From positions 1-59,381 of the forward strand of contig CAIWRR010000065.1 in the NCBI GenBank assembly GCA_903915125.1: 59,381 nucleotides of DNA, read 5' to 3'. The position numbers and the translations under genes were made by a program. Below are positions 5,689 through 51,902 of the stretch, piece by piece. How positions within the stretch are numbered: the stretch's first letter is position 1; each line of letters opens with the position of its first letter. The notes below the pieces were generated by a model. That model was not told where the DNA came from and made no database searches. It was given only the letters and a program-made list of their open reading frames with translations. The DNA comes from Candidatus Firestoneibacteriota bacterium (GTDB lineage: Bacteria; Oederibacteriota; D2-FULL-39-29; CAIOVX01).

Positions 5689-6738
5689 CTTATTTATTTC
5701 CTTCATCAACTCTTCCACCAGATTCTCTTCTTTCACCCTCTTAATAACCTTTCCGTTCTTGAACAACATACCCATGCCTTTGCCGCAGGCTATGCCAAAA
5801 TCGGCTTCGCTTGCCTCACCCGGACCGTTTACAACACAGCCCATAACGGCGACCTTGAGGGGACGCGAAATTCCGGAGACGAGGCGTTCTACTTCCTCTG
5901 CAATCGGGAAAAGAGATACTCCGCACCTGCCGCAGGTAGGGCAGACAATAAGGTCGACACCTTTGTCGCGAAGCTTCAGAGTCTTTAATATTCCGTAGCC
6001 TACGCGGATTTCCTCAAGCGGCTCTCCGGCAAGCGAGACGCGGATGGTGTCTCCCAGCCCGGAATGCAGGAGGGTTCCTATCCCGACAGCGGACTTGATT
6101 GTACCCCCCGAAACCGTGCCGGCCTCGGTTACTCCCACATGGAAAGGATAATCGCACTCCTTCGCCATGCGCGTATAAGCTTCTATGGTTGTCAGCGTGT
6201 CAGAAGCCTTTAGAGAGAGTACGATATCTTCAAATTTATTCCTTTCGAAGAAACGTATAAACGAGACCGCCCTTTTTACCATCTTTTTCGCTGTCACCGC
6301 GGCGCTTTCATGCCTCTGTCTGCCCGAGTACTTTTCCAAAGAACCGGCGTTAACGCCTATCCTTATTGGAATACGGGCGGATTTGGCGGCGGAGATAATT
6401 CCTTTAACTTTCAGGTCGCTTCCGATATTCCCGGGATTTATCCTGATCTTGTCCGCGCCCGCTTCGATGGCCAGAATAGCCAGTTTGCTGCTGAAATGAA
6501 TATCGGCAACCAGCGGGATTTTTATGCCGGCTTTTATCAGTTTAATTTTGCGCGCGGCTTCTTCGTCCAAAACAGCGCATCTGATTATTTCGCAGCCTGC
6601 CGACTGAAGCTCTTTTATCTGAGCAATGGTAGCGGCAACATCCCTGGTATCAGTCTTGGTCATTGACTGAACCGATACCGGAGCCCTGCCGCCTATGGCA
6701 ATATTTCCGGCCTTGACCGGACGGGTAACGCGTCTCAT
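5677..6738 (-). CDS. ispG: 4-hydroxy-3-methylbut-2-en-1-yl diphosphate synthase IspG
   Basis: GGRAPVSVQSMT, VNAGSL and CPTCGRC motifs. Length 353 aa. Confidence 0.9.
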   Translation of the reverse strand: MRRVTRPVKAGNIAIGGRAPVSVQSMTKTDTRDVAATIAQIKELQSAGCEIIRCAVLDEEAARKIKLIKAGIKIPLVADIHFSSKLAILAIEAGADKIRINPGNIGSDLKVKGIISAAKSARIPIRIGVNAGSLEKYSGRQRHESAAVTAKKMVKRAVSFIRFFERNKFEDIVLSLKASDTLTTIEAYTRMAKECDYPFHVGVTEAGTVSGGTIKSAVGIGTLLHSGLGDTIRVSLAGEPLEEIRVGYGILKTLKLRDKGVDLIVCPTCGRCGVSLFPIAEEVERLVSGISRPLKVAVMGCVVNGPGEASEADFGIACGKGMGMLFKNGKVIKRVKEENLVEELMKEINKLKS

Positions 6739-8096
6739 CTGTTCATCGTCCTTATGACCATGTTGAAGATGTCCAGCGAAAATACACCTATTATCATTAC
6801 CATCACAATAGCCCAGCCGGCGTACATCAAAGCCATCTGGGTCTTTAAAGGAACTGGTCTTCGTATTATTCCTTCAAAAAGATAAATAAGTATTACCCCG
6901 CCGTCAAGCACCGGAATCGGCAGTATTAAATTTAACGCTCCTACTATGGTGCTGAGCAGAGCCGTAAGCAACAGAAGCTGGGTTGGGCCTTTTTCGGCCG
7001 CTTCTCTCGCCATCTGAAACATCATTATAGGGCCCCCGACGGAATCTTTTACCGACTGTTTCCCTTTAGCCATCAGCCAGAGCGCCTTGACCTGAAGCAG
7101 CGTCAGCGAAACAGGTTTTTCTACTGCCATCAGGAATGAGTCCTTCAAGCCGTAGGATTTCTTGTAAAACATCGTCGGCCTTGACGAAATACCAATCATA
7201 TATTTTTTCGAGATAATGTTATCCTTAACAGGAGTAACCACCCGGTACTGTTCCTTCCCACCGCGGCTTACCAGAAATTTCACAGGTTTGCCGTCGCAAG
7301 TTTTCACCACATCAATAATGTCGGTGAACTGCGCTATTTCTTTCTCGTTCGCCTTGAGTATCAGGTCGCCGCTCTTCAGTCCGGCTTTGTATGCCGGCGT
7401 CCCGACGCTGACGTCAACAACCGCAGGCAAGAAGATTATCAGCCCGAAGGGGTTCTTTCCGGAAAGTTCCACGCTAATTGCTTTCTTCCGGCCCGAACGT
7501 TCTATCTCCGCAGTAAACGCGGTCTTCTCTCCAATCTCCTCGTACAGTTTATGCGTAAGCTCAGCCGGCTTGCCGTCAATAGCAATTATGGCGTCTCCTT
7601 TTTTAAAACCGCAGTGCTCAGCGACAGACCCCTTCTCCACTGAACCCACAACAGAAGGGCTGGTGCCGTACTGAATCCCTGAAAGGAACACAAGAAAAAA
7701 TATAATGACTCCGAGAACCAGGTTGATAAAGGAACCCGCGAAAGTTATAAAAATCTTCGACCACCAGGGCTGCCCCAGGAACTCGTGCTTCTCAAAAGTG
7801 TCTTTGCGCCTGAGATTGTTATTAACCTCTTCCGAAGGCTCGTCGCCCGCCATCTTGACATAGCCGCCGAGCGGGAACCAAGATATCATGTATTCCGTGT
7901 GACCTCTTTTGAAACCAATCAGCTTGCCGCCCCAGCCGAGCGAGAATTTAAGCACTCTGACGCCCATTATTTTTGCGGCAAAAAAATGTCCGGCTTCGTG
8001 CACGAAGACGACCACCCCGAAAGCGACAAAGGCTGCAATATAAGGCAGCGCGCCCTCGGCAAGAGCTAAAATATCCCGGAGTAAACTACCTGTCAT
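6735..8096 (-). CDS. rseP: RIP metalloprotease RseP (M50 site-2 protease)
   Basis: HEAGHFFAAK (HExxH), PDZ-like middle region, C-terminal PIPVLDGG. Confidence 0.85.
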   Translation of the reverse strand: MTGSLLRDILALAEGALPYIAAFVAFGVVVFVHEAGHFFAAKIMGVRVLKFSLGWGGKLIGFKRGHTEYMISWFPLGGYVKMAGDEPSEEVNNNLRRKDTFEKHEFLGQPWWSKIFITFAGSFINLVLGVIIFFLVFLSGIQYGTSPSVVGSVEKGSVAEHCGFKKGDAIIAIDGKPAELTHKLYEEIGEKTAFTAEIERSGRKKAISVELSGKNPFGLIIFLPAVVDVSVGTPAYKAGLKSGDLILKANEKEIAQFTDIIDVVKTCDGKPVKFLVSRGGKEQYRVVTPVKDNIISKKYMIGISSRPTMFYKKSYGLKDSFLMAVEKPVSLTLLQVKALWLMAKGKQSVKDSVGGPIMMFQMAREAAEKGPTQLLLLTALLSTIVGALNLILPIPVLDGGVILIYLFEGIIRRPVPLKTQMALMYAGWAIVMVMIIGVFSLDIFNMVIRTMNR

Positions 8097-12754: not shown

Positions 12755-13599
12755 TATTCTACGCCCCCCTTGCCCGGTTTCTTCTTAAGGCCCGTCTTAT
12801 CCTCTTGGAATTTTTCTATTACAGTCTCCATCTCTTCGTCTATATCAGCGGGAAGTTCTTTCGCCTCTGCGGCCGCGTCAGCCGCGGCTTTCTCGGCCAG
12901 GAGCGCTTCTTCCGCCACGCCTCTCTTGCCTTCAAGAACAGATTCAGAGATGAGGTAGGTAACAAGTTTTATGGCGCGGATGGCGTCATCATTGCCCGGA
13001 ATAACATAATCAACTTCATCCGGGTCGGAATTAGTGTCTGCAATGCCGATTACGGGTATCTCAAGCCTCTTTGACTCAAGTATTGCCGTGTGTTCTTTCT
13101 TGGTGTCCACCACATAGACCGCGGCAGGCAGCCTGTCCATGTTGCGAATGCCGCCGAGCACCTTGGAAAGTTTCGCCATCTCTTTCTCAAAACCAAGCAC
13201 TTCTTTCTTGGTGAATTTGGAGAAAGTGTCGTTCGCTTTCATCTTCTCAAGGTCTTCAAGCCTCTTGATGCTCTTCTTGATGGTTTTGAAATTTGTGAGC
13301 ATGCCGCCGAGCCACCTGAAAGAGACATAAAACATCCCCGCTCTTTTGGCTTCCTCGGTGATAATATCCTGCGCCTGGCTCTTAGTTCCGACGAAAAGGA
13401 CATAGCCGCCTTTTGCCGCCGCGTCCTTCACGAAATCGCAGGCTTCCTTGAGCTTCTTTACGGTTTTCTGGAGGTCGATAATATATATACCGTTCCTCTT
13501 GCCGTAAATGAATTTTGCCATCTTGGGGTTCCAGCGTTTGGTCTGGTGACCGAAGTGAACACCAGCTTCGAGCAACTGCTTGATTGAAATGACCGGCAT
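12754..13599 (-). CDS. rpsB: 30S ribosomal protein S2
   Basis: [19 protein letters not shown] motif, with an acidic/Ala-rich C-terminal tail. Confidence 0.9.
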
Positions 13600-13753
13600 A
13601 CAAAAACCTCCTTAAGGTTTTTACCTCCGCTCTTTCGGCCCGCATTCCCGGGCGCCGGTTGGCTCCGCGGGACCTGTGCGTGCGTTTATGAAGAGCGTGT
13701 GAATTCCCGGTCGAATTACCGGGTCTGCGCCTTGGCGGCGCGTTTGTTTATTA

Positions 13754-13782
13754 ATCATATAGGAATTTGAAGCAAATTTCAA
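13754..13782 (-). promoter_or_regulatory. Sigma70-like promoter ahead of a ~150-nt GC-rich rpsB leader
   Basis: Minus strand reads TTGAAA, 17 nt, TATGAT. The leader (13600-13747) contains hairpins GCGCC-GCCAA-GGCGC and CCCGGT-AATTCG-ACCGGG. Confidence 0.4.
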
Positions 13783-13840
13783 GATATTTGTGAAGAATGG
13801 ATGGAAAAACCGCGGAATTTGTCGTGTATTTATGCGCTTT

Positions 13841-15058
13841 TCAGGATAATTTCCACTTTTTGAACTCCCGCACAACGCGGTTGACCAGTTTGAATGTCTC
13901 GAATTGCCGCAACTGCGAGGTATCCGCTTCATAGCCGCCGTTTACAAAAGCGTTCGCGTGAGGCATATAGCTAAGGTATCCTGTTGAATTATAAAGTATA
14001 TAGGTTTTTTTAAACGGTGAATTCCATTTTATCTCAAGGCCCGGCTCCGCCAGCAGTTCTCCCGGAACACCCGCAAAGCAAACATCGCCTATTCTAAGAA
14101 AAACGACTTCCCCGGCCTCGGTTTTCCTGTTTTCAAAGAGCGGCATAAGATGCTTCTTTTTCTCCGTATTGACTGCAAGCGGCACTTTTATAACCCTGGT
14201 TTCCACCTCAGGGTTCTTTATCCTGCAAGCTTCCGTCTTAAGCACCCGCGAAAGACTTCCGGAAACTTTCAAACCAAGACGGCGCCCCAGATTCTCCATT
14301 TTCCTGAATCCCCCTTCATAATCATACGGATGCAGGTCGCCGCAGGCGCCGGTCGTAAAAACGCAGAAACCTCCCAGCTTTTTCTCCACGGTTTTCCGAA
14401 GCGCTCCGGGGTAATCAGAGGTGATTTTCAAGGACTTGCCTCCGCGTCTCTGCGACGCGAGCGGATGGGCGGAATAATTGATTATGCTTGCCAGGTTTTT
14501 CCCGGTCCTTCTGCTCATAAAGAAGAGCATCCCGAGTTCAGGGTCTGTCACTCCGTCGGCGACGGGCTTTAAATGTTTTTCGTCCGGCAGGTAGGCGAAC
14601 CTGTTGCCGGGAAGCAAAACCCTCCGGTTTATGTTCTCAGAGACATTTACCGAATGGCGGTAGACCTCCACCGGTTCCATGCCGGAAAATACGCCTTCTA
14701 ACGCTTCCAGCGTCCTGCCGATAAGCCATTTAGAGTACTTTACATCCCTTAAAGTTTTTTTGGAACCTGAGCGCGAGTGCGGCCCGGAATGAGTATGAGT
14801 GCACGCAACGATAATTGAGGTTGCTTTCAGCGACAGCAGTTTCGCGGCCCGGGTCCGAAGTTCAAGGATAAGAGGCCTATCCATACCTATAAGGTCATAA
14901 CTGAGCAACAGGGCCTTCGTTCTGCCGTCATTGAAAGCTATGCCGGAAAGCAGCAGGTCATCATGCACGCCGTTTGAAATATTGTCCGGCCCGTAACCGG
15001 CGAGCCTTGCTCCAACCGCCGGAGTTATTATGCTCCTAAAAGTTTTGATCTTAAGCAC
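13841..15058 (-). CDS. Hypothetical hydrolase resembling the neutral/alkaline ceramidase N-terminal domain
   Basis: N-terminus ITPAVGARLAGYGP...GVHDDLLLSGIAFNDG...LLSYDLIGMD and ACTHTHSGPH resemble that family. No signal peptide is seen. Confidence 0.4.
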   Translation of the reverse strand: MLKIKTFRSIITPAVGARLAGYGPDNISNGVHDDLLLSGIAFNDGRTKALLLSYDLIGMDRPLILELRTRAAKLLSLKATSIIVACTHTHSGPHSRSGSKKTLRDVKYSKWLIGRTLEALEGVFSGMEPVEVYRHSVNVSENINRRVLLPGNRFAYLPDEKHLKPVADGVTDPELGMLFFMSRRTGKNLASIINYSAHPLASQRRGGKSLKITSDYPGALRKTVEKKLGGFCVFTTGACGDLHPYDYEGGFRKMENLGRRLGLKVSGSLSRVLKTEACRIKNPEVETRVIKVPLAVNTEKKKHLMPLFENRKTEAGEVVFLRIGDVCFAGVPGELLAEPGLEIKWNSPFKKTYILYNSTGYLSYMPHANAFVNGGYEADTSQLRQFETFKLVNRVVREFKKWKLS

Positions 15059-42667: not shown

Positions 42668-43285
42668 TTAATAGTTGCGATAGGGCTTTCCTCTTTCATC
42701 AGTTCCGCTGATGTTGATTTTTATGTTGCCGTAATCTTTTGACTTTTTGTCACTGCAATAATACCAGCCGCCCGTCCCGTCAAAAGAATAGACAACCGTG
42801 CTGCTTCCTGTTATTTCTTCCGCGGGAACAGGATTGGGAAAGTACATTTCCTTCTGCTCGTTCGCTATTTTCTCCGGCATGCCTCCGTTATGCTCGGCCA
42901 TATATATGCCGATGCTGCAGCGAAGGGCCCGCAGATTCTCAAGAGTTGTCCTCAGCGCGGGTTTTGCCGTCAAAAATTTATTGCTCTTCTTTTCCCACGC
43001 TTTTCCTGTTTTAGCCAGGAGCATTCTTCCTGACGCAACAATTGTTTCACCCGTCGGCCAGTGCTTATAAAGGGCAGACGCGCTTTTCTTCACTAACAAA
43101 CGTGCCGTGTATTCCGCCTCATAACTATCCGCGCTTTTTGCGGCGCCTTTGGTTATTTTAACGGAAGAGACTTCAAAATCATCGCTTAGCAAACTGCCGA
43201 TAAGTTTTGAATCGGGGAGTTTTGTATTTGAACAACCGCAGGCCAGAACCAATGCCAGCGCGGATGATATCAATAACCGTCTCAT
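42668..43285 (-). CDS. Lipoprotein with pseudopilin-like C-terminal globular region
   Basis: Lipobox LVLACGC. The C-terminal LENLRALRCSIGIYMAEHNGGMPEKI...YFPNPVP...WYY...D..G.PY.NY resembles the GspG/type IV pilin head, but the N-terminal prepilin motif is absent. Confidence 0.4.
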   Translation of the reverse strand: MRRLLISSALALVLACGCSNTKLPDSKLIGSLLSDDFEVSSVKITKGAAKSADSYEAEYTARLLVKKSASALYKHWPTGETIVASGRMLLAKTGKAWEKKSNKFLTAKPALRTTLENLRALRCSIGIYMAEHNGGMPEKIANEQKEMYFPNPVPAEEITGSSTVVYSFDGTGGWYYCSDKKSKDYGNIKINISGTDERGKPYRNY

Positions 43286-43316
43286 TCACCCTCCCTGCTA
43301 ATCTTAACGGGAAAAA

Positions 43317-43751
43317 TCATATTAGCGGACAGTTAACTTCTATCTGCCTCCAGCCATTATCAGTCATATCATACATACAATGGCCTGTTATTTGCCGGGT
43401 TTCGCCTGCTCTCCAGTAATAGCCCGAAGAAGGCCAACCTGGAATCTTCATTAAATCAACAACAAATTTAATTTTCGCGGCAAACATGATTTCATAATGC
43501 TCAACGCCATTAATAACGGAGCGCTGGCCGTTTGTTTTCTTGAACTCCAACACAGTGAAACCTTCACCCACTCCGTATCTCGTTAAGGAGGCACTTGCCA
43601 TTTGCTCTGATGGCCGGTCGAGGCTGCCGCAACCTGAGCAAAGAATTACCGCTCCAATACAAAACAACAATATTTTTTTTATGATGCTCTCCTGTAGTAC
43701 GCGGATTTGTTTAAGGCGGATTGTTAAGGAAGTCCACCCGAAGACCGCCAT
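43317..43751 (-). CDS. Small lipoprotein, unknown function
   Basis: KKILLFCIGAVILCSGCGS lipobox. The start codon is uncertain because the n-region is long if translation begins at the ATG at 43751. Confidence 0.45.
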   Translation of the reverse strand: MAVFGWTSLTIRLKQIRVLQESIIKKILLFCIGAVILCSGCGSLDRPSEQMASASLTRYGVGEGFTVLEFKKTNGQRSVINGVEHYEIMFAAKIKFVVDLMKIPGWPSSGYYWRAGETRQITGHCMYDMTDNGWRQIEVNCPLI

Positions 43752-43794
43752 TCTTTGAATATCAAAGAAACAAGGCCCTGAGGAAAGCGGGCCT

Positions 43795-44775
43795 TTACTC
43801 GCCGTAAACCGCTATCAGTTCTTCCAGCGTGAAGCTGGCGCTGAGCTGCCTGGGCTTGATACGTCCGTCAAGGATCTTAAAAAAGAACTCCGCTATGGTT
43901 TCCGGGGTCAGCAATACGGGTTTTCCGGCGGAGTCATTGCCGATGTCATACGTCTTCAGCAGTTGAGCCCCCAGGCTTCCGGCGGAGATAAGGAAATGAT
44001 TTTGCAGTTTATTAAGATCCAAGAGATCGGCGGCCAGAACTTTCCCTACAACCGAAAGGCATCTGACAACGCTGGTATTGCCGGCTTCATCTGCAAGGAC
44101 AACGCGCTGTTCTTCTTTCAGCGGGTCTATGGGGATTGATCCGGTTTTTTCTTTTTCCGGCACTCCGCGCATCAGCGCCCCGAGATCAGCGATAGAGTGG
44201 TTAATTATAAGCGTACCCGGGAGGCAGGCGAACGGCTCCACGGAGAACGCGCTGGGAAGCAGAAGGTGAATCTCCTGGCTGAGACTGACATGGGGACTGT
44301 TAAAAGTGCCCACAATGACATTGTTGAGAGAAAGATTCTTAGTCGCAAAGACCCCGCCAAGCACGATACAGTTCTCAAGTACGATATCGTCGGCAAATAT
44401 ATTCGCCGCGACATAGGCATTTTTAAGATTTACCGTTTTCGCGTTTACGTCCGCGCCGAAATAGGTCCTGCCGCCTTTTGCCTGCGCGATTACCGCGCCC
44501 GCCGAACCGACGCATTTACGAAAAATAACAGGTTCCTTTACGTCGCTGTAAACACTGCATTCCATCTGGGTAAAAACGGCGCCCTGAACCTCGAAAGGCC
44601 CTTTTGTTATTTCCAAATTGCGCGCGTAGAGAGCGCCTTCAACCACAGTCTCTCCCTGTATTGAAACATCACGGTCAAGCTCTGCCACCACATTCGGGAT
44701 TATTGCGCTTCTCACCAGATTATCCTTAAGCACAATTTGGTGCTTATCGACTGTGAAATTCTTCAGCTCTTTCAT
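43795..44775 (-). CDS. Beta-helix repeat protein, bactofilin-like N-terminal half
   Basis: Repeating short strand pattern: DVSIQGETVVEGALYARNLEITKGPFEVQGAVF...VNAKTVNLKNAYVAANIFADDIVLENCIVLGGVFATKNLSLNNVIVG. No signal peptide. Confidence 0.35.
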   Translation of the reverse strand: MKELKNFTVDKHQIVLKDNLVRSAIIPNVVAELDRDVSIQGETVVEGALYARNLEITKGPFEVQGAVFTQMECSVYSDVKEPVIFRKCVGSAGAVIAQAKGGRTYFGADVNAKTVNLKNAYVAANIFADDIVLENCIVLGGVFATKNLSLNNVIVGTFNSPHVSLSQEIHLLLPSAFSVEPFACLPGTLIINHSIADLGALMRGVPEKEKTGSIPIDPLKEEQRVVLADEAGNTSVVRCLSVVGKVLAADLLDLNKLQNHFLISAGSLGAQLLKTYDIGNDSAGKPVLLTPETIAEFFFKILDGRIKPRQLSASFTLEELIAVYGE

Positions 44776-45816
44776 CTAATTCTCCTTTACCCCTGCGTTA
44801 TTCCAAAGCTGCTGTATGGTTTTGGCTTCGCGCTGAATGCGCGTATCCGGATTATTTCCGGCGTGTTGAACAATCAACTGCTTCAGGCTTTCGCCGATGT
44901 CCGTTTTTGTCGCCCCGGCAAAACCGTTTAGCGGCTGCGTGCGCTCAATGCAATACTGCCGTTTTGCTTCAAGCTCTTTGACAAAAGGCGCATTATCCGG
45001 AAAATATACATTTGTTTCTTTCCCGCCTGACATGCCTTCTTTTTCGATAAAAACCGCCGGCACCAGGAGCGTTTGTTCCGCTTCAATCCTGAGGTCTTCA
45101 TTTATGGCGCTTATAGATTCTCTCAAACGCGCGCCCGCGGCTATACTCTTGCTCGCGCTGGATATTATTGACAAAGCGCTGTGCTTGACGGAATAGGTCA
45201 ACAACTGGCTTTGCGCCAGCTGAGACTCGCGGCCTCCCAGCGCCTGGGTTGCCACAAGCGATGAACGCGAAGAATCAGAGACAGGATCCGCGCTGGCCAC
45301 GCGCAATGAAAAAGCCGCCATGTCAAGGTTATGGACGCGTTTTTTAAGTTCCGTGTCAAGATCTTCAAAAAGACGCACATAACGCGACTTAATCCGGTTG
45401 TAATCTTTTTCCATCTGCTCCTGCAGGGCCCTGCATCTGGCGGAAAGGTTGAGAATCTCCTGAAGCTTCGGCCCCAAGGCCATGGAAAGCTTTGTCATCT
45501 GCTGGGTAAGAGTGCTTTGGATAAACCCGAAAAAACCCTTGACAACTTCTCCGGATATTTTCTTCGCGGCTTCGGCCTTGCTGGCTATCTGGGCGGCTTC
45601 GGTTGCCACCACAGACGCGGTCATCAGGTCAACATCATTCTTGCAGACGGCAACGCTCTGCTGAAAGGGATCGTCGTCAACAGTGACCAGTATCTCAACA
45701 CCCTCCGACCATTGCATAGAAACCGACTGGGTTCCTCCATTCTCGGAAGCAGGATATCTGAAACTTCCGCTCACAGTGCCTGATATTGTCTGATGGTCTC
45801 TTATCCTGTACGCCAT
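44776..45816 (-). CDS. Hypothetical protein, paralog A of a tandem pair
   Basis: Colinear similarity to 45818-46729 (see finding). Start set at MAYRIRDHQ, 1 nt after the paralog B stop. Confidence 0.6.
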   Translation of the reverse strand: MAYRIRDHQTISGTVSGSFRYPASENGGTQSVSMQWSEGVEILVTVDDDPFQQSVAVCKNDVDLMTASVVATEAAQIASKAEAAKKISGEVVKGFFGFIQSTLTQQMTKLSMALGPKLQEILNLSARCRALQEQMEKDYNRIKSRYVRLFEDLDTELKKRVHNLDMAAFSLRVASADPVSDSSRSSLVATQALGGRESQLAQSQLLTYSVKHSALSIISSASKSIAAGARLRESISAINEDLRIEAEQTLLVPAVFIEKEGMSGGKETNVYFPDNAPFVKELEAKRQYCIERTQPLNGFAGATKTDIGESLKQLIVQHAGNNPDTRIQREAKTIQQLWNNAGVKEN

Positions 45817-45817
45817 T

Positions 45818-46729
45818 TTACGCCAACCCCTGTTTCTGTTCTGCGCAGGCTGAGATGAGCTCAAGCGTTGTTTTGCTTACCCTTTCCGGAAGGCTTCCGG
45901 CCGCAAGCATGGCACGCGCCTGCTCTATCACGGCTTCAGCTATCTCCCCGTTTCCTGAAGAGTCGAGACGGCCGAATTCCGGAAGCAGCGCCGATTCAAT
46001 ATTTTTGGAAACCGAAAATGCAGGCGCGTAAACCGCCTTTGATTTTATATCCATATTGATATCATCACTTTCAAAAAGAACGGCAGGAATCATAACCGCG
46101 ACGGAAGATTCGGGGGATTCACCGTCAATTATCTGCATCATTGATTCCTGAAGCGCTGCCGTCTTGTCCAGTATTCCAGACATATTCTCAAGCGCCTTAA
46201 GCGCCGTCCGGCGCGCAACAGACGAAGCTATCGCCTGTGAAGCGCAGATACTCTCTTTCTGGTGAACAGGCGTCTGAACCCCTTCGTTAAGCATGCGCCT
46301 CATGGAAAGATGCATTTGGACAGCCGATAATTCTACAGACGCTTTGTCCAGCTCTGATACGCGGGTTTTTAGGGAATTGTTAAGGGTTTGGAATACTTTT
46401 GTGTACCGGTTTGAAATACGGTGAAAATCACGGTCCATCTGCTCGTGAACACGCCGGAGAGCCGCGCCAAAATGGCTAAGCTCCTGGAGCTTGGCATCAA
46501 CTACGGCCCTGGCCTCCGCGCTTCTCTGCGAGAGCTGGGACAAAACGAGGGAAAAGAAACCGCGGTTGACATTTTCGCAAATATGATTTGCCGCGCTTTG
46601 TTCCGCGGCTACAGTCGCCGCCTTCATGGCAACTATGGCTACAGTCGTGCCGTTGACATGATTCGCAACCTGCTGAACGCTTTCCGCCATCGGCTCGGTG
46701 CTGACATTTACATACAGAGTGGATGACAT
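45818..46729 (-). CDS. Hypothetical protein, paralog B of a tandem pair
   Basis: 303 aa, no TM segment or signal peptide. Its ATG shares one base with the upstream TAA (TAATG). Confidence 0.6.
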   Translation of the reverse strand: MSSTLYVNVSTEPMAESVQQVANHVNGTTVAIVAMKAATVAAEQSAANHICENVNRGFFSLVLSQLSQRSAEARAVVDAKLQELSHFGAALRRVHEQMDRDFHRISNRYTKVFQTLNNSLKTRVSELDKASVELSAVQMHLSMRRMLNEGVQTPVHQKESICASQAIASSVARRTALKALENMSGILDKTAALQESMMQIIDGESPESSVAVMIPAVLFESDDINMDIKSKAVYAPAFSVSKNIESALLPEFGRLDSSGNGEIAEAVIEQARAMLAAGSLPERVSKTTLELISACAEQKQGLA

Positions 46730-48732
46730 TATCTGACCTCCGGCTTTGAGCCTGTTTCTTCCGGCCCGCTGCCAGGGGATCCGGCTTCCCCTCCGCCTGT
46801 TTCAGGTTCCGCAGCCGCCCCCGATTTCGCCGCCGCAGCGTCTTTATAGTCCTGCACTGTTTGCTTAAGATTAAGCGAAAGCCCTTTCTGCACTTCTTCT
46901 CCCAAATCAGGCTGCGGAGGCAATTCCGCCATCTCCGCGAAATAAGCGTTTACGCCAAGCAAATTCTTGCGCCTTTCATTAAGAGAAGTCATCCTGGACA
47001 TGGCTCCGGCAAAATCCCTCGACCCTGCGTCACAAAGCGAGGCGTCGAAAAATTCGATATAACCGAATTCCCCGGCCTTCCGGTCGATTTCTTCTTTCAG
47101 CCTGTTAATGTATTCATTGAACTCATCCTGAATCTTCCGGAATTCCGCGCTCTTCACTTCATAGGCGGCTATGGATTCCCCTGATGAACCGGAAGCATCC
47201 ACTTTCGACTCAGACAGGCTGCCTGAAGCCGCCATTTTCTTCTGCGTCTCTTCGAAAGCCTTGAACTGGTTAAAGCTTGCCGTGAATTCCGTCAGGCTGG
47301 CCTGCATTAAGTTGATCAGCTCGCTGCCTTCGGCGCGGTTTCTGCCGTAGAAGTCGTCCGTATCCCTATGCCACTGATTCAGGTAATCCAGCTTCTGATC
47401 TTTTATATCATTGTAGAGCTTCATGCGCTCAATGCGGGTTTCTCTCATGAGATTCCTTAGGATAGGGCTTACGATTTCTTCGTGTATCTGGTGAATACCG
47501 AAGGGAAAACTTGTCCGGCGCCCGTCCATGGCGACCCAGTTTCCCGAGATAGCGTCATAATGCACCCTGGAACTCTTCTTAAGTTCAAACGGGCGGTAAT
47601 TGTCTACCGACTCCTGGTAATCAAAACGCTCCCCCCTTATACGGTCTATCTCTTCCGCTTCAAGATGGGGGGAATAGTGGTTGTAAGCGGAATTAAGGCT
47701 TGCAAACAGTGTTTTATTGGCGTGTGTCACCATATGATCCGTAGAACCAATCTTAACTTTTGTGACAAGCTGGATCGTTGAGGCCAGGCGGTCCATAAGC
47801 CCCTGCAGGAACTCCTCAAACTGGGCTGTCTGCCCTTCCATAGCTTTTTTCATTTCATTCAGAACCTTAAAACGTTCTATATCGTCCTTTTGGGCGTCGG
47901 TGTCAAACACATTAAGGATAAAACCGTTTGAAGCTTCCGTGGTGCCATGCTCGCGAAGAAAGTCGGCGTAAGAACTTTTCGGGTCAATGACCGGCATTGA
48001 GACTGAATTGCGGTCAAGGTCATTCAGGAAGAAAGACGCGGCTCGCATATTGCGGTCTAAACCGCCAAGGTAGTCATAATATGAGACCTGCTGTATGGAA
48101 CGGGAGAACTCGGATGTGTTTACTTCTTCCATTGCCGAAGAGCCTTCAACCAGCGGTATGTTCTTTAAGGCGCCTTCAATTTCCTGAATGTTCTTGATAA
48201 AAGCATCCTGGTTTTTTATATTATAGAGAATGAATTCCTGCAGCGGAACATTGTTTGTGTGGTCCAGCATAAAACTTTTGCCTTCAAAAGGAATCCGGGT
48301 TGCGACAGGAATGTACGCGACACCAAGACGATGAACCTTGTAGTCGCGTCGTATGTTGCCAAACTCCTCGCGAAAAACATTAATGTTTTCTTCAGTGTCA
48401 AGTATAAGTTTTTCCTGCTTCTTCTTTTCCAGCATTGCTACCACCGCCGGAATGACGAGTCCGCCCGCCAGAAAATACAGAAAAGATATATTGGCAAAAA
48501 GCGCAAAAAGCGCGCAAAATCCTGCTCCTATAAACCATAACAGCATTAAATTGTGTTGCTTTTTAACATCAGCCTCGGCTTGTTGCTTTACCTCTTCTTT
48601 TGCTTCAATTTCAGCTTCCAGCCTGAGTTCTTCATCAACAATCTTCTTTGCCGCAGCAGCGTAATATTCATAGAGAACTTTCGCTTGATCCTGGATTACA
48701 TCATTTGATCCGGAAAAAACTTTTGCGCTCAT
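46729..48732 (-). CDS. Large two-TM coiled-coil membrane protein, unknown family
   Basis: 667 aa. N-terminal charged helix, a TM hairpin (LMLLWFIGAGFCALFALFA / FLYFLAGGLVIPAVVAML), a long helical region, and a Gly/Pro/Glu-rich tail. Confidence 0.6.
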   Translation of the reverse strand: MSAKVFSGSNDVIQDQAKVLYEYYAAAAKKIVDEELRLEAEIEAKEEVKQQAEADVKKQHNLMLLWFIGAGFCALFALFANISFLYFLAGGLVIPAVVAMLEKKKQEKLILDTEENINVFREEFGNIRRDYKVHRLGVAYIPVATRIPFEGKSFMLDHTNNVPLQEFILYNIKNQDAFIKNIQEIEGALKNIPLVEGSSAMEEVNTSEFSRSIQQVSYYDYLGGLDRNMRAASFFLNDLDRNSVSMPVIDPKSSYADFLREHGTTEASNGFILNVFDTDAQKDDIERFKVLNEMKKAMEGQTAQFEEFLQGLMDRLASTIQLVTKVKIGSTDHMVTHANKTLFASLNSAYNHYSPHLEAEEIDRIRGERFDYQESVDNYRPFELKKSSRVHYDAISGNWVAMDGRRTSFPFGIHQIHEEIVSPILRNLMRETRIERMKLYNDIKDQKLDYLNQWHRDTDDFYGRNRAEGSELINLMQASLTEFTASFNQFKAFEETQKKMAASGSLSESKVDASGSSGESIAAYEVKSAEFRKIQDEFNEYINRLKEEIDRKAGEFGYIEFFDASLCDAGSRDFAGAMSRMTSLNERRKNLLGVNAYFAEMAELPPQPDLGEEVQKGLSLNLKQTVQDYKDAAAAKSGAAAEPETGGGEAGSPGSGPEETGSKPEVR

Positions 48733-48743
48733 AAAATTAGCTC

Positions 48744-49460
48744 CTATATGTCAATATCATTTCTGCACTCTTTGCGTATCCTGACCAGATCGCTGAGCCT
48801 GTCAGCCGAAGGCCTTACCTGCCCTGCCGGCAGGAGGGTACCGCCGTCTCTTGTATTTTTCAAAATACCGAACAGGACTTTCATCTCCGAGAGAATTTTG
48901 CCGTCCAATTCCAGCGCGGCTTTTGTATCAAGAGGACAGAGATATTTAAGGTCCTCTCCAATCCGTTCTATCTGTTTACGCAATTCAGGGTATTCCTGAT
49001 CAAGGACCGCAATAGAAGAGTATTCCTCCGTGAAAAACGATCTTAGCCCGTCAATTGAAGCAAAAGCCCTGTTCTCTCCACGCCCTATCCCGGCTGCCTT
49101 AATACCTGCCGAACATCCTATTGCGTAACCTGAGATAAGGAGTAAAAACAATACCAGCTGGATATACAAGGAAAAATTGAAGGCACAGCCGGTAACATGC
49201 GCGAATAACAGTCCCGACAGAGCAAAGAGAGAATAAAGCGCGGCGGAAACCCAGAAAATACCGAGGGAGGGAAGAATTTTTTTGAACGCCGGAACGGTTT
49301 TCCAGATTTGAATCATATTCAGGTAACTGGAAGAAAAAACCGAAACAATGACAAACATATCCAGCCAAATCTGTTCCGGCCAGGGTTTGGCCGTCACAAA
49401 AAGCATAAATCCGGCGACAATAACAACAATCCCCAGGAAAAATCCGATAAGGCGCTTCAT
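48744..49460 (-). CDS. 5-TM membrane protein with ~100-aa soluble C-terminal domain, unknown family
   Basis: 238 aa. Hydrophobic segments run through about residue 125, followed by a charged helical domain. Confidence 0.55.
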   Translation of the reverse strand: MKRLIGFFLGIVVIVAGFMLFVTAKPWPEQIWLDMFVIVSVFSSSYLNMIQIWKTVPAFKKILPSLGIFWVSAALYSLFALSGLLFAHVTGCAFNFSLYIQLVLFLLLISGYAIGCSAGIKAAGIGRGENRAFASIDGLRSFFTEEYSSIAVLDQEYPELRKQIERIGEDLKYLCPLDTKAALELDGKILSEMKVLFGILKNTRDGGTLLPAGQVRPSADRLSDLVRIRKECRNDIDI

Positions 49461-49478
49461 GAATATCCCCCAAAAAGT

Positions 49479-50657
49479 TCAGATCACTTTCAACCCGCAA
49501 GACGGGCAGAACAAAACGTTTGGCGCGAGTTGATTCCCGCAGCGCGAGCAAGCGCTGCCGTCGGGCGCGGAAGACTGCGCCGAAACAAGCGGCTGCCCGC
49601 AGGAAACACAGCGCGAAGCTTTCTCGTCATTATCACTGCCGCATTTCGGGCACGGCAAATATGGATCCCCGCAATGAGGGCAGAACTTTGAGGAATTCTG
49701 GAATTTCTTGGAACACTTTGAGCAGAACACGTCACGGGCAACAGCGTGCTGAGGTATATTTTTGTTTATCTGCCCATCTTGAGGATTGCTGCCTGCCGGC
49801 GGGTCCATCATGGACTTTCCGACTCCGCCGCTCCCGCCCATTAAACCGCCGCCCATCAACATAATGCCAAGGAGGCCGGTGCTTCCGGGACCGGTCACCG
49901 CGTCTTTGCCAAGCTTGAAGGCTTCGCTCTGCTGCCAGGTGTAGCCAGCTATACTCTGAGCGCTTTGCTGAGCCATCGCCTCAAGTATCTTTTTTCCGTC
50001 AGCGGTGCGGTCGTCAATATCAATCGATGTAATATAGAAACCGGTTAGCAAGAAACCGTACTCTTCCCAGAAAGGCGCCATATTTTTTTGAAGCTGCTGC
50101 GAAAGCGCATCCAGATGCGCGCTTATGCTTTTAAGGCCGATGCTGTTTGCCTGCATCACCTGGAGGAGCAGTGACTTGGTCTTTGAAACGAGTAATCCTC
50201 TAAAATTATTGGTTATCGCCTTGGCGTCAAAACTAGCGGCGGTGCCGACCAGATTTTTTAGAAAACGTCCTGAATCACTAACCTTTACGCCGTACCTTCC
50301 TTTTGCCATCAGCGGCACCATTGTCTTATAGTCGGGGTCGTTCAGCCTCATGTTGTCCGTATCCCAATCAATATCGAGCGGCATAAGTTTATTGACAAAC
50401 CATACTTCAGCCGTGAAAGGATTATTGCCGCCGAAAGGCAGTCCAAAAAGAGAGCGGAGTAAAGGAATGTTTTCAGTATCGAGAGTGTGCTTGCCGGGGC
50501 CGAATTTTTGTATCATGCGGCCCTTGCTGAACAAGACCGCTTCCTGGGATTCCGCGACGATTATCTGGGTGAAAGTGCTGAGGTTTGTTTCTTTGTAACG
50601 CCAGGCATAGACAGGTTCAGACCCCGGATCCCACTTGATAAAGTCTATAAATGCCAT
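49479..50657 (-). CDS. SPFH (band 7) domain protein of the YdjI / 'virion core protein-like' type with C-terminal zinc ribbons
   Basis: MAFIDFIKWDP...AESQEAVLFSKGRMIQKFGPGKHTLDTENIPLL is typical of this family. A Gly-rich linker follows, then six CxxC pairs (CSKCS, CPHCG, CPKCG, CVSCG, CSRCG, CPSCG). Start set at the ATG at 50657 behind GGGGGGG. Confidence 0.7.
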   Translation of the reverse strand: MAFIDFIKWDPGSEPVYAWRYKETNLSTFTQIIVAESQEAVLFSKGRMIQKFGPGKHTLDTENIPLLRSLFGLPFGGNNPFTAEVWFVNKLMPLDIDWDTDNMRLNDPDYKTMVPLMAKGRYGVKVSDSGRFLKNLVGTAASFDAKAITNNFRGLLVSKTKSLLLQVMQANSIGLKSISAHLDALSQQLQKNMAPFWEEYGFLLTGFYITSIDIDDRTADGKKILEAMAQQSAQSIAGYTWQQSEAFKLGKDAVTGPGSTGLLGIMLMGGGLMGGSGGVGKSMMDPPAGSNPQDGQINKNIPQHAVARDVFCSKCSKKFQNSSKFCPHCGDPYLPCPKCGSDNDEKASRCVSCGQPLVSAQSSAPDGSACSRCGNQLAPNVLFCPSCGLKVI

Positions 50658-50710
50658 ATCCCCCCCTGCGCTTCTATCAACCGGTGAAGCCGGAAACTTT
50701 CTCAAACAAG

Positions 50711-50739
50711 ATTATTAACCAATTCCCGGGAAATGTCAA
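50711..50739 (-). promoter_or_regulatory. Sigma70-like promoter of the nine-gene operon
   Basis: Minus strand reads TTGACA, 17 nt, AATAAT, about 50 nt upstream of the ATG at 50657. Confidence 0.55.
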
Positions 50740-50852
50740 CAGCAAAGTATTTTTTCCCGCATGAACAAGCGGGCCGAATTAACGGCTGCTTGTTATTCCT
50801 TTTGAGGCGGACATTTTGTCCGATAAAGGTCAATTATAAAGCAATATCAAGG

Positions 50853-51902
50853 TTATTTATTGCCTGAATTAACATATTCCTGTTTCTCTATTTTTTTCTT
50901 CGCGGCCGCGTGCTGTCCGAACGTCTCGCTAAACTCGTGAGAGCCGTCGCCCTTTGCGACAAAGAACTTAAATTTGGTTTCTGCCGGATCCAGCGCCGCG
51001 AGGATGGAAGCCAATCCCGGATTGCAGATAGGGGTCGGCGGCAGCCCATGATATCTATAGGTGTTATAACCGGATTCAACCTCAAGGTCGCGGAAGCTTA
51101 ACCGCGGCTTACCCTTTACCCTGTCGCCGAGCGCGAAATAAACTGTGGCGCAGGATTCAAGCTTCATCCCCGACTTCAGCCGGTTCATAAAGACTCCCGC
51201 TATCAAAGCCCGTTCGGACGGTTTCTCCGCTTCTCTCTCCACTAATGAGGCGAGCCGCAGAACATCATAAAAACGGAGTTTCCTCTCCTCGCACTTTCTG
51301 TAAACGCCGTTCTTTTCCATGACCGCATTGAAATTTGCGCGCATAATTCTGAGTATTTCTTCTTCCTGCGTATTGGCGCTAAAAAGATAGGTCTCGGGGA
51401 AAAGATACCCCTCAAACGTCCTGCCTTCAAGTTTATTCTTCCTGACGAACACGTTATCGGCGCACTTCTTCAGGAACGCGGCTTCCGTGGTAATGCGCTG
51501 AGCCGCCAGCAGCCTCGCGATCTGCTTCGCGGTGAAGCCCTCCGGCACCGTAATCTTGTATTGCTTGACTTTGCCGGAAACCAGCATTGAAATTATTTTC
51601 CAGTTATTCATCGAGGGGGAGAACTCGTAATTGCCGGACTTAAATATCGCTCCGCGAAACAGCCTTGTCAATTTGAAAGAAAAAATATCGCCGATGATTC
51701 CGTTTTCCTTTAAGAGTTCCGCAACACTGCCCGCCGGCATGCCGCGATCAATGGTCACCAGTTTTGGACTATTGCCCAAGCGGTGAGGTATAAGAGATAT
51801 CCACGCAAAAACCGCGAATACTGCCGCCAGCGCGAGCAGGAGCTTTTTCAAGTACGGCGGAATTCCGCCTTTCTTACTTTCTGTCATTTTCCCCCCTTTC
51901 AT
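50853..51902 (-). CDS. mltG: Endolytic murein transglycosylase MltG (YceG-like)
   Basis: N-terminal TM anchor, then VTIPEGFTAKQIA, EGYLFPETY and LASLVEREA motifs. Confidence 0.85.
   Translation of the reverse strand: MKGGKMTESKKGGIPPYLKKLLLALAAVFAVFAWISLIPHRLGNSPKLVTIDRGMPAGSVAELLKENGIIGDIFSFKLTRLFRGAIFKSGNYEFSPSMNNWKIISMLVSGKVKQYKITVPEGFTAKQIARLLAAQRITTEAAFLKKCADNVFVRKNKLEGRTFEGYLFPETYLFSANTQEEEILRIMRANFNAVMEKNGVYRKCEERKLRFYDVLRLASLVEREAEKPSERALIAGVFMNRLKSGMKLESCATVYFALGDRVKGKPRLSFRDLEVESGYNTYRYHGLPPTPICNPGLASILAALDPAETKFKFFVAKGDGSHEFSETFGQHAAAKKKIEKQEYVNSGNK

Follow-up and report, generated by a model that had tools for sequence, protein, structure and literature searches.

The paired bacterial proteins A and B are encoded by adjacent genes in a stretch of DNA of 59,381 nucleotides (contig CAIWRR010000065.1, assembly GCA_903915125.1; hereafter the window) from a Candidatus Firestoneibacteriota bacterium. 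A and B are genuine ancient paralogs of one so-far undescribed protein family, and their genes are numbers 5 and 4, respectively, of a self-contained six-gene cassette, G1-G2-G3-B-A-G6, which appears in the window as six closely packed open reading frames (ORFs) on the minus strand between 43.8 and 50.7 kb. The order of these genes is kept in all 94 related loci that were fetched, each compared as far as its contig extends. The other members of the cassette are a soluble SPFH protein (G1), two proteins with transmembrane segments (G2 and G3), and a bactofilin-like protein (G6). A first-pass annotation of the window had already singled out A and B as tandem, strongly diverged paralogs at the centre of an operon, without a recognisable family and derived from an old duplication, and the formal analysis described here agrees with it on each of these points. 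With a probability of roughly 0.4, A and B would form an obligate hetero-oligomer that acts as a scaffold at the inner membrane, on its cytoplasmic side.

Paralogy of A and B

The pair spans positions 44776 to 46729. Gene B, at 45818 to 46729, encodes a soluble, helical protein of 303 residues; gene A, at 44776 to 45816, encodes a soluble protein of 346 residues, with a predicted N-terminal beta-hairpin (absent from B), a long helix, a further helix, two strands, and a small helical C-terminal domain. The ORF of A reaches back to a TTG at 45864, but homologs have their start in common with the ATG at 45816 (MAYRIRD...), where M1 and Y3 are conserved, and a protein of 346 residues is also given in public gene calls. 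Stop and start codons overlap or abut at three successive junctions in the window. The ATG of B overlaps the TAA of G3 as ATAATG, the stop codon of B (TAA, 45820-45818) is followed by one base and then by the ATG of A, and the ATG of G6 stands directly after the TAG of A, with an AAGGAG within the last codons of A. The first two of these junctions are as originally described, as is the lack of a transmembrane segment in either protein (19-residue Kyte-Doolittle means peak at 0.91 in A and at 1.10 in B).

In a BLASTP comparison, residues 42-273 of A align with residues 5-236 of B at 99.8 bits (E=1e-28), with 31% identity over 235 aligned residues and 6 gaps. The Smith-Waterman score of the pair is 269, compared with 43.3 +/- 6.9 (maximum 87) for 1000 shuffles of B (z=32.6). 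Within this alignment, the ungapped block between A 42-171 and B 5-134 contains 47 identities in 130 positions, close to the 45 or so first counted by hand. A second colinear block (LLVPAVFIEKEG versus MIPAVLFESDD), also noticed at first reading, falls within the same alignment and holds the family-invariant proline P253. The N-terminal extension of A, initially put at about 40 residues, is likewise real: every A-type ortholog has the approximately 41 extra residues, with the conserved motif YPASENGG among them.

The age of the duplication can be judged from the 74 loci in which both genes are complete. In each of these, B lies directly upstream of A, usually at a distance between a 4-base overlap and about 21 bases. 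Median identity is 41% between A proteins and 48% between B proteins, as against 26% between A and B, where the maximum is 33%. The nearest neighbour of every A is an A and that of every B is a B, and the two types form clean orthologous groups with no sign of gene conversion. Because every protein is closest to its own type across loci, the duplication is, by these sequence comparisons, older than the spread of the six-gene cassette. Both diverged copies are kept in every cassette, which argues for distinct, non-redundant roles and fits a hetero-oligomer.

The A/B protein family

Word-indexed searches yielded 32 relatives for A and 16 for B, all of them lacking both a Pfam domain and an informative name. 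A profile built from 45 A/B sequences and compared with 1.84 billion cluster representatives matched 741 clusters at E<=1e-3 and 477 at E<=1e-30 (clusters at 50% identity), with 141 weak matches between 1e-10 and 1e-3. Nearly all of the 150 clusters listed are represented by proteins of 300-370 residues that match from end to end, and the few shorter ones look like fragments; from these matches, A and B belong to a compact family of a single architecture. Ten positions are invariant in the family (A75, G94, F95, D138, I142, R145, Y146, R160, P253, and R329, in the numbering of A), and A-type proteins have an additional invariant loop, Y21-P22-x-S24-x-x-G27.

The family has no counterpart in the libraries searched. 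Neither A nor B matches a family in Pfam (window proteins, E<=0.1), NCBIfam, PADLOC, or PHROGs, and the 45 members compared with Pfam at E<=1 give scattered coiled-coil noise only (BORCS6, CortBP2, CdvA, Apolipoprotein). Single-sequence searches of Protein Data Bank (PDB) sequences with A and B gave no match, and the family profile gave one spurious match (E=0.22). Profile-profile alignment with hhalign detects no relationship of A/B to G3 or to G6, and no internal repeats were found within A/B.

Predicted structure of A

An AlphaFold2 model of A, built from an alignment of 45 sequences, is about 60% helical, with an overall pLDDT (predicted local distance difference test) of 75.9, rising to 94-95 over residues 120-160, and a pTM (predicted template modelling score) of 0.24. 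In the model, a beta-hairpin at residues 3-46, whose loop is the YPASENGG motif, precedes a long helix at 49-175. A linker without order leads to a further helix (190-238); two short strands (255-271) come behind the invariant proline, and the small helical C-terminal domain ends the chain. B is without the hairpin, although its last strand is kept.

The best-conserved residues of the family (M135, D138, I142, R145, Y146, F150, L153, L157, R160 [160/161], and L164) lie on a single face of the long helix between about 135 and 165, with i/i+3/i+4 spacing and a periodicity of 3.6 residues. This is the pattern expected of a protein-protein interface. The mostly helical model and the conserved stripe along one helix face make it plausible that A and B could be subunits of a filament or lattice.

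In a mean-field direct coupling analysis of covariation (327 sequences, with an effective number of 256), it is the antiparallel N-terminal hairpin of A that stands out (pairs 15-38, 13-36, 17-34, 19-30, and 7-44, with i+j of about 49-53), a signal to be read with care because this region is present in A-type rows only. Foldseek comparison of the model with the PDB gave 389 matches, none below E=0.1, and neither there nor among viral structures did a match fall below E=0.04. The leading PDB rows align about 46 residues with the stems of beta-barrel pore toxins, at TM-scores of about 0.1, and are meaningless.

The six-gene cassette

The first gene of the cassette, G1 (49479 to 50657), encodes a soluble SPFH protein of 392 residues in which a Band_7_1 domain (Pfam PF13421, 128.1 bits against a cut-off of 24, E=4.8e-37) is followed by a glycine-rich linker and three C-terminal zinc ribbons (DZR and Zn_Ribbon_1, about 1e-14). 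It has no hydrophobic or transmembrane segment. Its ATG start follows a GGGGGGG, and public gene calls also give 392 residues. Wherever upstream sequence is present and a match was found, G1 is the first gene of the cassette. About 50 nucleotides upstream of G1, a promoter-like site at 50711 to 50739 on the minus strand (TTGACA, a spacer of 17 nucleotides, AATAAT) agrees with the consensus at 11 of 12 positions and is the best site in a scan of 43000-51200. Only its position and quality speak for it, because the total of such sites in the region is not above that in shuffled sequence.

Both G2 and G3 are predicted membrane proteins. G2 (48744 to 49460) is a polytopic protein of 238 residues which, judging by hydropathy (peaks at 4-22, 62-80, and 102-120), has N-terminal transmembrane helices and a cytoplasmic helical C-terminal part. 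It has no match in Pfam, NCBIfam, PADLOC, or PHROGs. Its slot in related loci holds a gene for about 236 residues, weakly conserved, so that tblastn finds only a subset. G3 (46729 to 48732) encodes 667 residues and combines a helix at the N-terminus with a transmembrane hairpin (about 62-100) and a large domain in the cytoplasm. Its cross-locus tblastn scores are the highest among the six cassette proteins. It is matched by at least 1196 clusters (E<=1e-10), every one of them named hypothetical and hardly any having a Pfam domain; 59 columns are invariant among 61 sequences, and mean column identity is 47-49%. G3 itself has no PDB sequence match, no family in Pfam, NCBIfam, PADLOC, or PHROGs, and no match in the plasmid and phage collections searched, and its AlphaFold model (pLDDT 74.1) has no significant Foldseek match in the PDB.

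The most invariant stretch of G3, at about 350-470 (NHYSP..LEAEEIERIR...W..EDG...FPFG.HQI.EEI..P...NLM.ETR.ER), is also the least confident in the monomer model, with pLDDT below 50; such a region may fold only against a partner. The C-terminal tail of G3 is variable. Zinc ribbons like those of G1 occur there in 2 of the 35 orthologs of one alignment, and also in the orthologs P0204 and P0304, and one ortholog has PF09413 in their place; total length ranges from about 615 to 833 residues.

The last gene, G6 (43795 to 44775), encodes a protein of 326 residues whose N-terminal half is a putative, divergent bactofilin-like beta-helix and whose C-terminal domain is unassigned. Every locus contains G6, which has the highest column identity of the alignments made (70%). 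Of 34 orthologs, 28 match the Pfam Bactofilin family (PF04519) at E<=1, the best at 2.3e-4, all below curated thresholds, and the protein of the window has no match; the sole PDB match of the G6 family profile is the bactofilin BacA (2n3d, E=0.14). In none of the six cassette proteins did library scans reveal a domain of an enzyme, an NTPase, or a nuclease.

Downstream of the cassette lie two small genes, at 43317-43751 (144 residues) and 42668-43285 (205 residues), whose products are hydrophobic near the N-terminus. Pfam gives no match for either, no other lineage has a cassette-adjacent counterpart, and they are not members of the cassette. The sole RNA gene detected in the window is a tRNA-Leu (CAA) at 1018-1103.

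Distribution and genomic setting

The cassette keeps its composition in changing surroundings. The flanks of the 94 loci are unrelated, the commonest flanking family being found in 5 of them. Housekeeping genes are frequent neighbours, in the window as elsewhere (MltG, RuvX, UbiB, tRNA synthetases, and ribosomal protein genes). Some loci have mobile or defence genes nearby, namely GmrSD and RteC, HNH_5, an STK-iSTAND kinase with an AAA protein, or a transposase.

A scan of 185,579 species genomes confirmed 112 relatives. The scan was limited by its search pattern and covered A-type sequences only, no stretch of the combined A and B alignment being conserved enough. Among the 80 genome matches listed, 75 are from Bacteroidota of many families, and the rest are from Gemmatimonadota, Acidobacteriota, and two bins of doubtful assignment; one locus is from Bryobacteraceae. 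The isolates Capnocytophaga sputigena NCTC11653, Labilibaculum filiforme, and Dysgonomonas termitidis are among the matches. In no GTDB species genome does a relative of A exceed 46% identity in the best segment. On mobile DNA, searches of 72,556 plasmids, 50,697 phage records, and 2.9 million viral contigs (IMG/VR) turned up no relatives.

A few cassettes contain additional genes. Two closely related ones share a gene for about 560-576 residues (L087, 7312-8985; L094, 12990-14720; 83% identical to each other), the product of which has many DnaJ-type CxxCxGxG zinc-finger repeats and a C-terminal TerB domain. In one locus the gene separates G2 from G3, whereas in the other it comes behind G6; no other fetched locus has it. 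In L087, G2 (6558-7339) and G6 (12941-13916) are each split into two ORFs (114 and 132 residues; 212 and 109 residues), which could reflect decay of the cassette or assembly errors. A Draconibacterium cassette (L026, 4076-5632) has two extra genes between G2 and G3, one for a zinc-ribbon protein with a hydrophobic stretch (323 residues) and one an ORF of 194 residues.

Comparison with known systems

The closest parallel to the cassette is found in Bacillus subtilis, where YdjI, a soluble Band-7 protein with a C-terminal zinc ribbon, acts with the membrane proteins YdjG and YdjH to place PspA, a helical homolog of ESCRT-III, on the membrane (PMC8581546; PMC11237479; bioRxiv 10.64898/2026.02.06.704340). 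G1 has the same Band_7_1 and zinc-ribbon architecture as YdjI, and in both the PspA-YdjGHI (SamGHI) operon and the cassette a Band-7/zinc-ribbon protein is accompanied by a soluble helical protein of elongated shape and by integral membrane proteins. In contrast to that operon, the cassette has no PspA and no YdjG-like protein, and G2 lacks a TPM domain; it adds a transmembrane-hairpin protein of about 650 residues and a bactofilin-like protein, and has two helical paralogs rather than one. The cassette would parallel PspA-YdjGHI in role only, A and B having no detectable homology to PspA/ESCRT-III.

Proteins of the ESCRT-III/PspA/Vipp1 group resemble A and B in being soluble, acidic, largely helical, of comparable size, and encoded beside an SPFH protein. 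Paralog pairs are common in ESCRT-III systems. ESCRT-III and PspA were among the remote folds suggested at the outset, none of which was found, and as a lead they have failed in comparisons of sequences and profiles. None of the 45 A/B members matches PspA_IM30 (PF04012) or Snf7 (PF03357) at E<=1, and neither ESCRT-III nor PspA has an entry among the 50 listed Foldseek matches of the A model. Homology of A/B to PspA/Vipp1 received an hhalign probability of 0.2%, in a weak test whose template consisted of two sequences (E. coli PspA and Synechocystis Vipp1). Where ESCRT-III proteins have an alpha1-alpha2 hairpin, the A model predicts one continuous helix (49-175), at a pTM of only 0.24 and with covariation too weak to tell the two apart; the model also has beta elements at both ends, which are absent from ESCRT-III proteins.

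According to work cited in PMC10936438, SPFH proteins form large rings or cages on membranes. In HflK/C-FtsH and in the flotillin-NfeD/YqiJ systems of YqiK and YuaG, as in the cassette, an SPFH scaffold is encoded with membrane partners. However, G1 is without the transmembrane anchor of these scaffolds, and an NfeD, protease, or flotillin domain is absent from the cassette. Bactofilins (BacA, BacM) are matched weakly but consistently by the N-terminal half of G6, which differs from them by its extra, highly conserved C-terminal domain of about 150 residues. A full-text literature search found no paper mentioning both SPFH and bactofilin, and nothing relevant for SPFH together with anti-phage activity.

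Proposed function and alternative explanations

A and B would be made together, from adjacent genes that overlap or nearly abut, and would join in an obligate hetero-oligomer at the inner membrane, on its cytoplasmic side. They would be brought to the membrane by the soluble SPFH/zinc-ribbon protein G1 and the membrane proteins G2 and G3 and, with the bactofilin-like polymer G6, would make up a sub-membrane scaffold that maintains or remodels the membrane. The nature of the constant partners argues for this model, all being membrane-proximal or structural (the SPFH domain of G1, the transmembrane segments of G2 and G3, and the bactofilin-like G6). Several observations weigh against it. The pTM of the A model is low (0.24), its single helix of 127 residues may be an artefact of a shallow alignment, and covariation among the 327 sequences shows no coherent helix-helix contact pattern. 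The link to PspA-YdjGHI is one of genomic context only; a TPM domain is missing from G2, and A and B lack PspA similarity. The patchy distribution and the occasional neighbours (GmrSD, RteC, HNH, and the STK-iSTAND kinase) also fit an accessory or conflict function. In a stronger form of the model, A and B would be a heteropolymer that shares no fold with ESCRT-III/PspA and is linked to a cage of SPFH protein, to a pair of membrane anchors dedicated to it, and to a filament of the bactofilin-like kind, the whole being a new class of membrane-shaping or membrane-repair cytoskeleton; judged from the sequences and their neighbourhood, this is a tentative proposal and somewhat doubtful.

The conflict function just mentioned would make the cassette a system for anti-phage or other conflict in which A and B, with or without G3, serve as an effector or sensor and, much as happens in abortive infection, perturb the membrane once infection occurs. 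The self-contained nature of the cassette amid unrelated flanks, its sporadic occurrence (the 112 relatives of the pattern-limited genome scan), and the neighbours listed above, including the AAA protein and the transposase, are what such a system would lead one to expect. It is nevertheless an unlikely explanation, since the six proteins have no relevant PADLOC-DB match at E<=0.1 and no nuclease, NTPase, or other usual effector or sensor domain, relatives are missing from the plasmid, phage, and viral collections searched, many loci (that of the window included) lie among housekeeping genes, and G6 and G3 are unusually well conserved across phyla. The same strong conservation can be turned to another account, in which A and B are not structural end-products but serve as paired assembly factors or adaptors, with G3 or the bactofilin-like G6 as the protein that they chaperone or regulate. 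G3 and G6 are better conserved than A and B, whose genes lie between theirs, and the region of G3 that is most conserved yet poorly predicted in the monomer would fit partner-dependent folding. On the other hand, at 300-350 residues, and with a helical core that is elongated and conserved, A and B are large for dedicated chaperones, and no similarity to known chaperone families was found; this account, which overlaps with the scaffold model and is hard to tell from it, is likewise unlikely.

The arrangement of A and B also recalls the ClyA-family toxins YaxAB and XaxAB, which are adjacent, diverged paralogs of 300-400 residues, helical and without signal peptides. A and B are likewise adjacent, strongly diverged, helical, of that size, and without signal peptides, and it is only this combination of gene arrangement, protein size, and helical content that points to a two-component alpha-helical pore-forming toxin. 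A toxin is nevertheless very improbable. No A/B member matches a Pfam toxin family at E<=1 or a PDB sequence, the 50 Foldseek matches listed for the A model include no member of the ClyA family (of all 389, not one falls below E=0.1), and A and B have no hydrophobic head, insertion segment, or beta-tongue (maximum Kyte-Doolittle mean about 1.0). Furthermore, their constant partners are cytoplasmic or inner-membrane proteins rather than secretion or immunity genes, and the hosts are mostly free-living or gut Bacteroidota. The hetero-oligomeric scaffold on the inner membrane remains the preferred explanation.

Significance

SPFH proteins and bactofilins are widespread bacterial scaffold families whose partners are, to our knowledge, largely unknown. 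The cassette joins one SPFH protein and one bactofilin-like protein to four proteins of no recognised family (A, B, G2, and G3), and it is strictly conserved over at least three phyla (Bacteroidota, Acidobacteriota, and Gemmatimonadota). The larger result is the cassette itself, a conserved SPFH-bactofilin module of the SPFH-organised membrane-module kind. The cultured carriers, Capnocytophaga sputigena NCTC11653, Labilibaculum filiforme, and Dysgonomonas termitidis, make it experimentally tractable. If A and B prove to be the working polymer, the cassette would represent a second, non-homologous answer to the task that falls to PspA/ESCRT-III beside YdjI-type SPFH proteins, and it would provide a first functional handle on a sizeable set of “hypothetical” genes of gut and environmental Bacteroidota.

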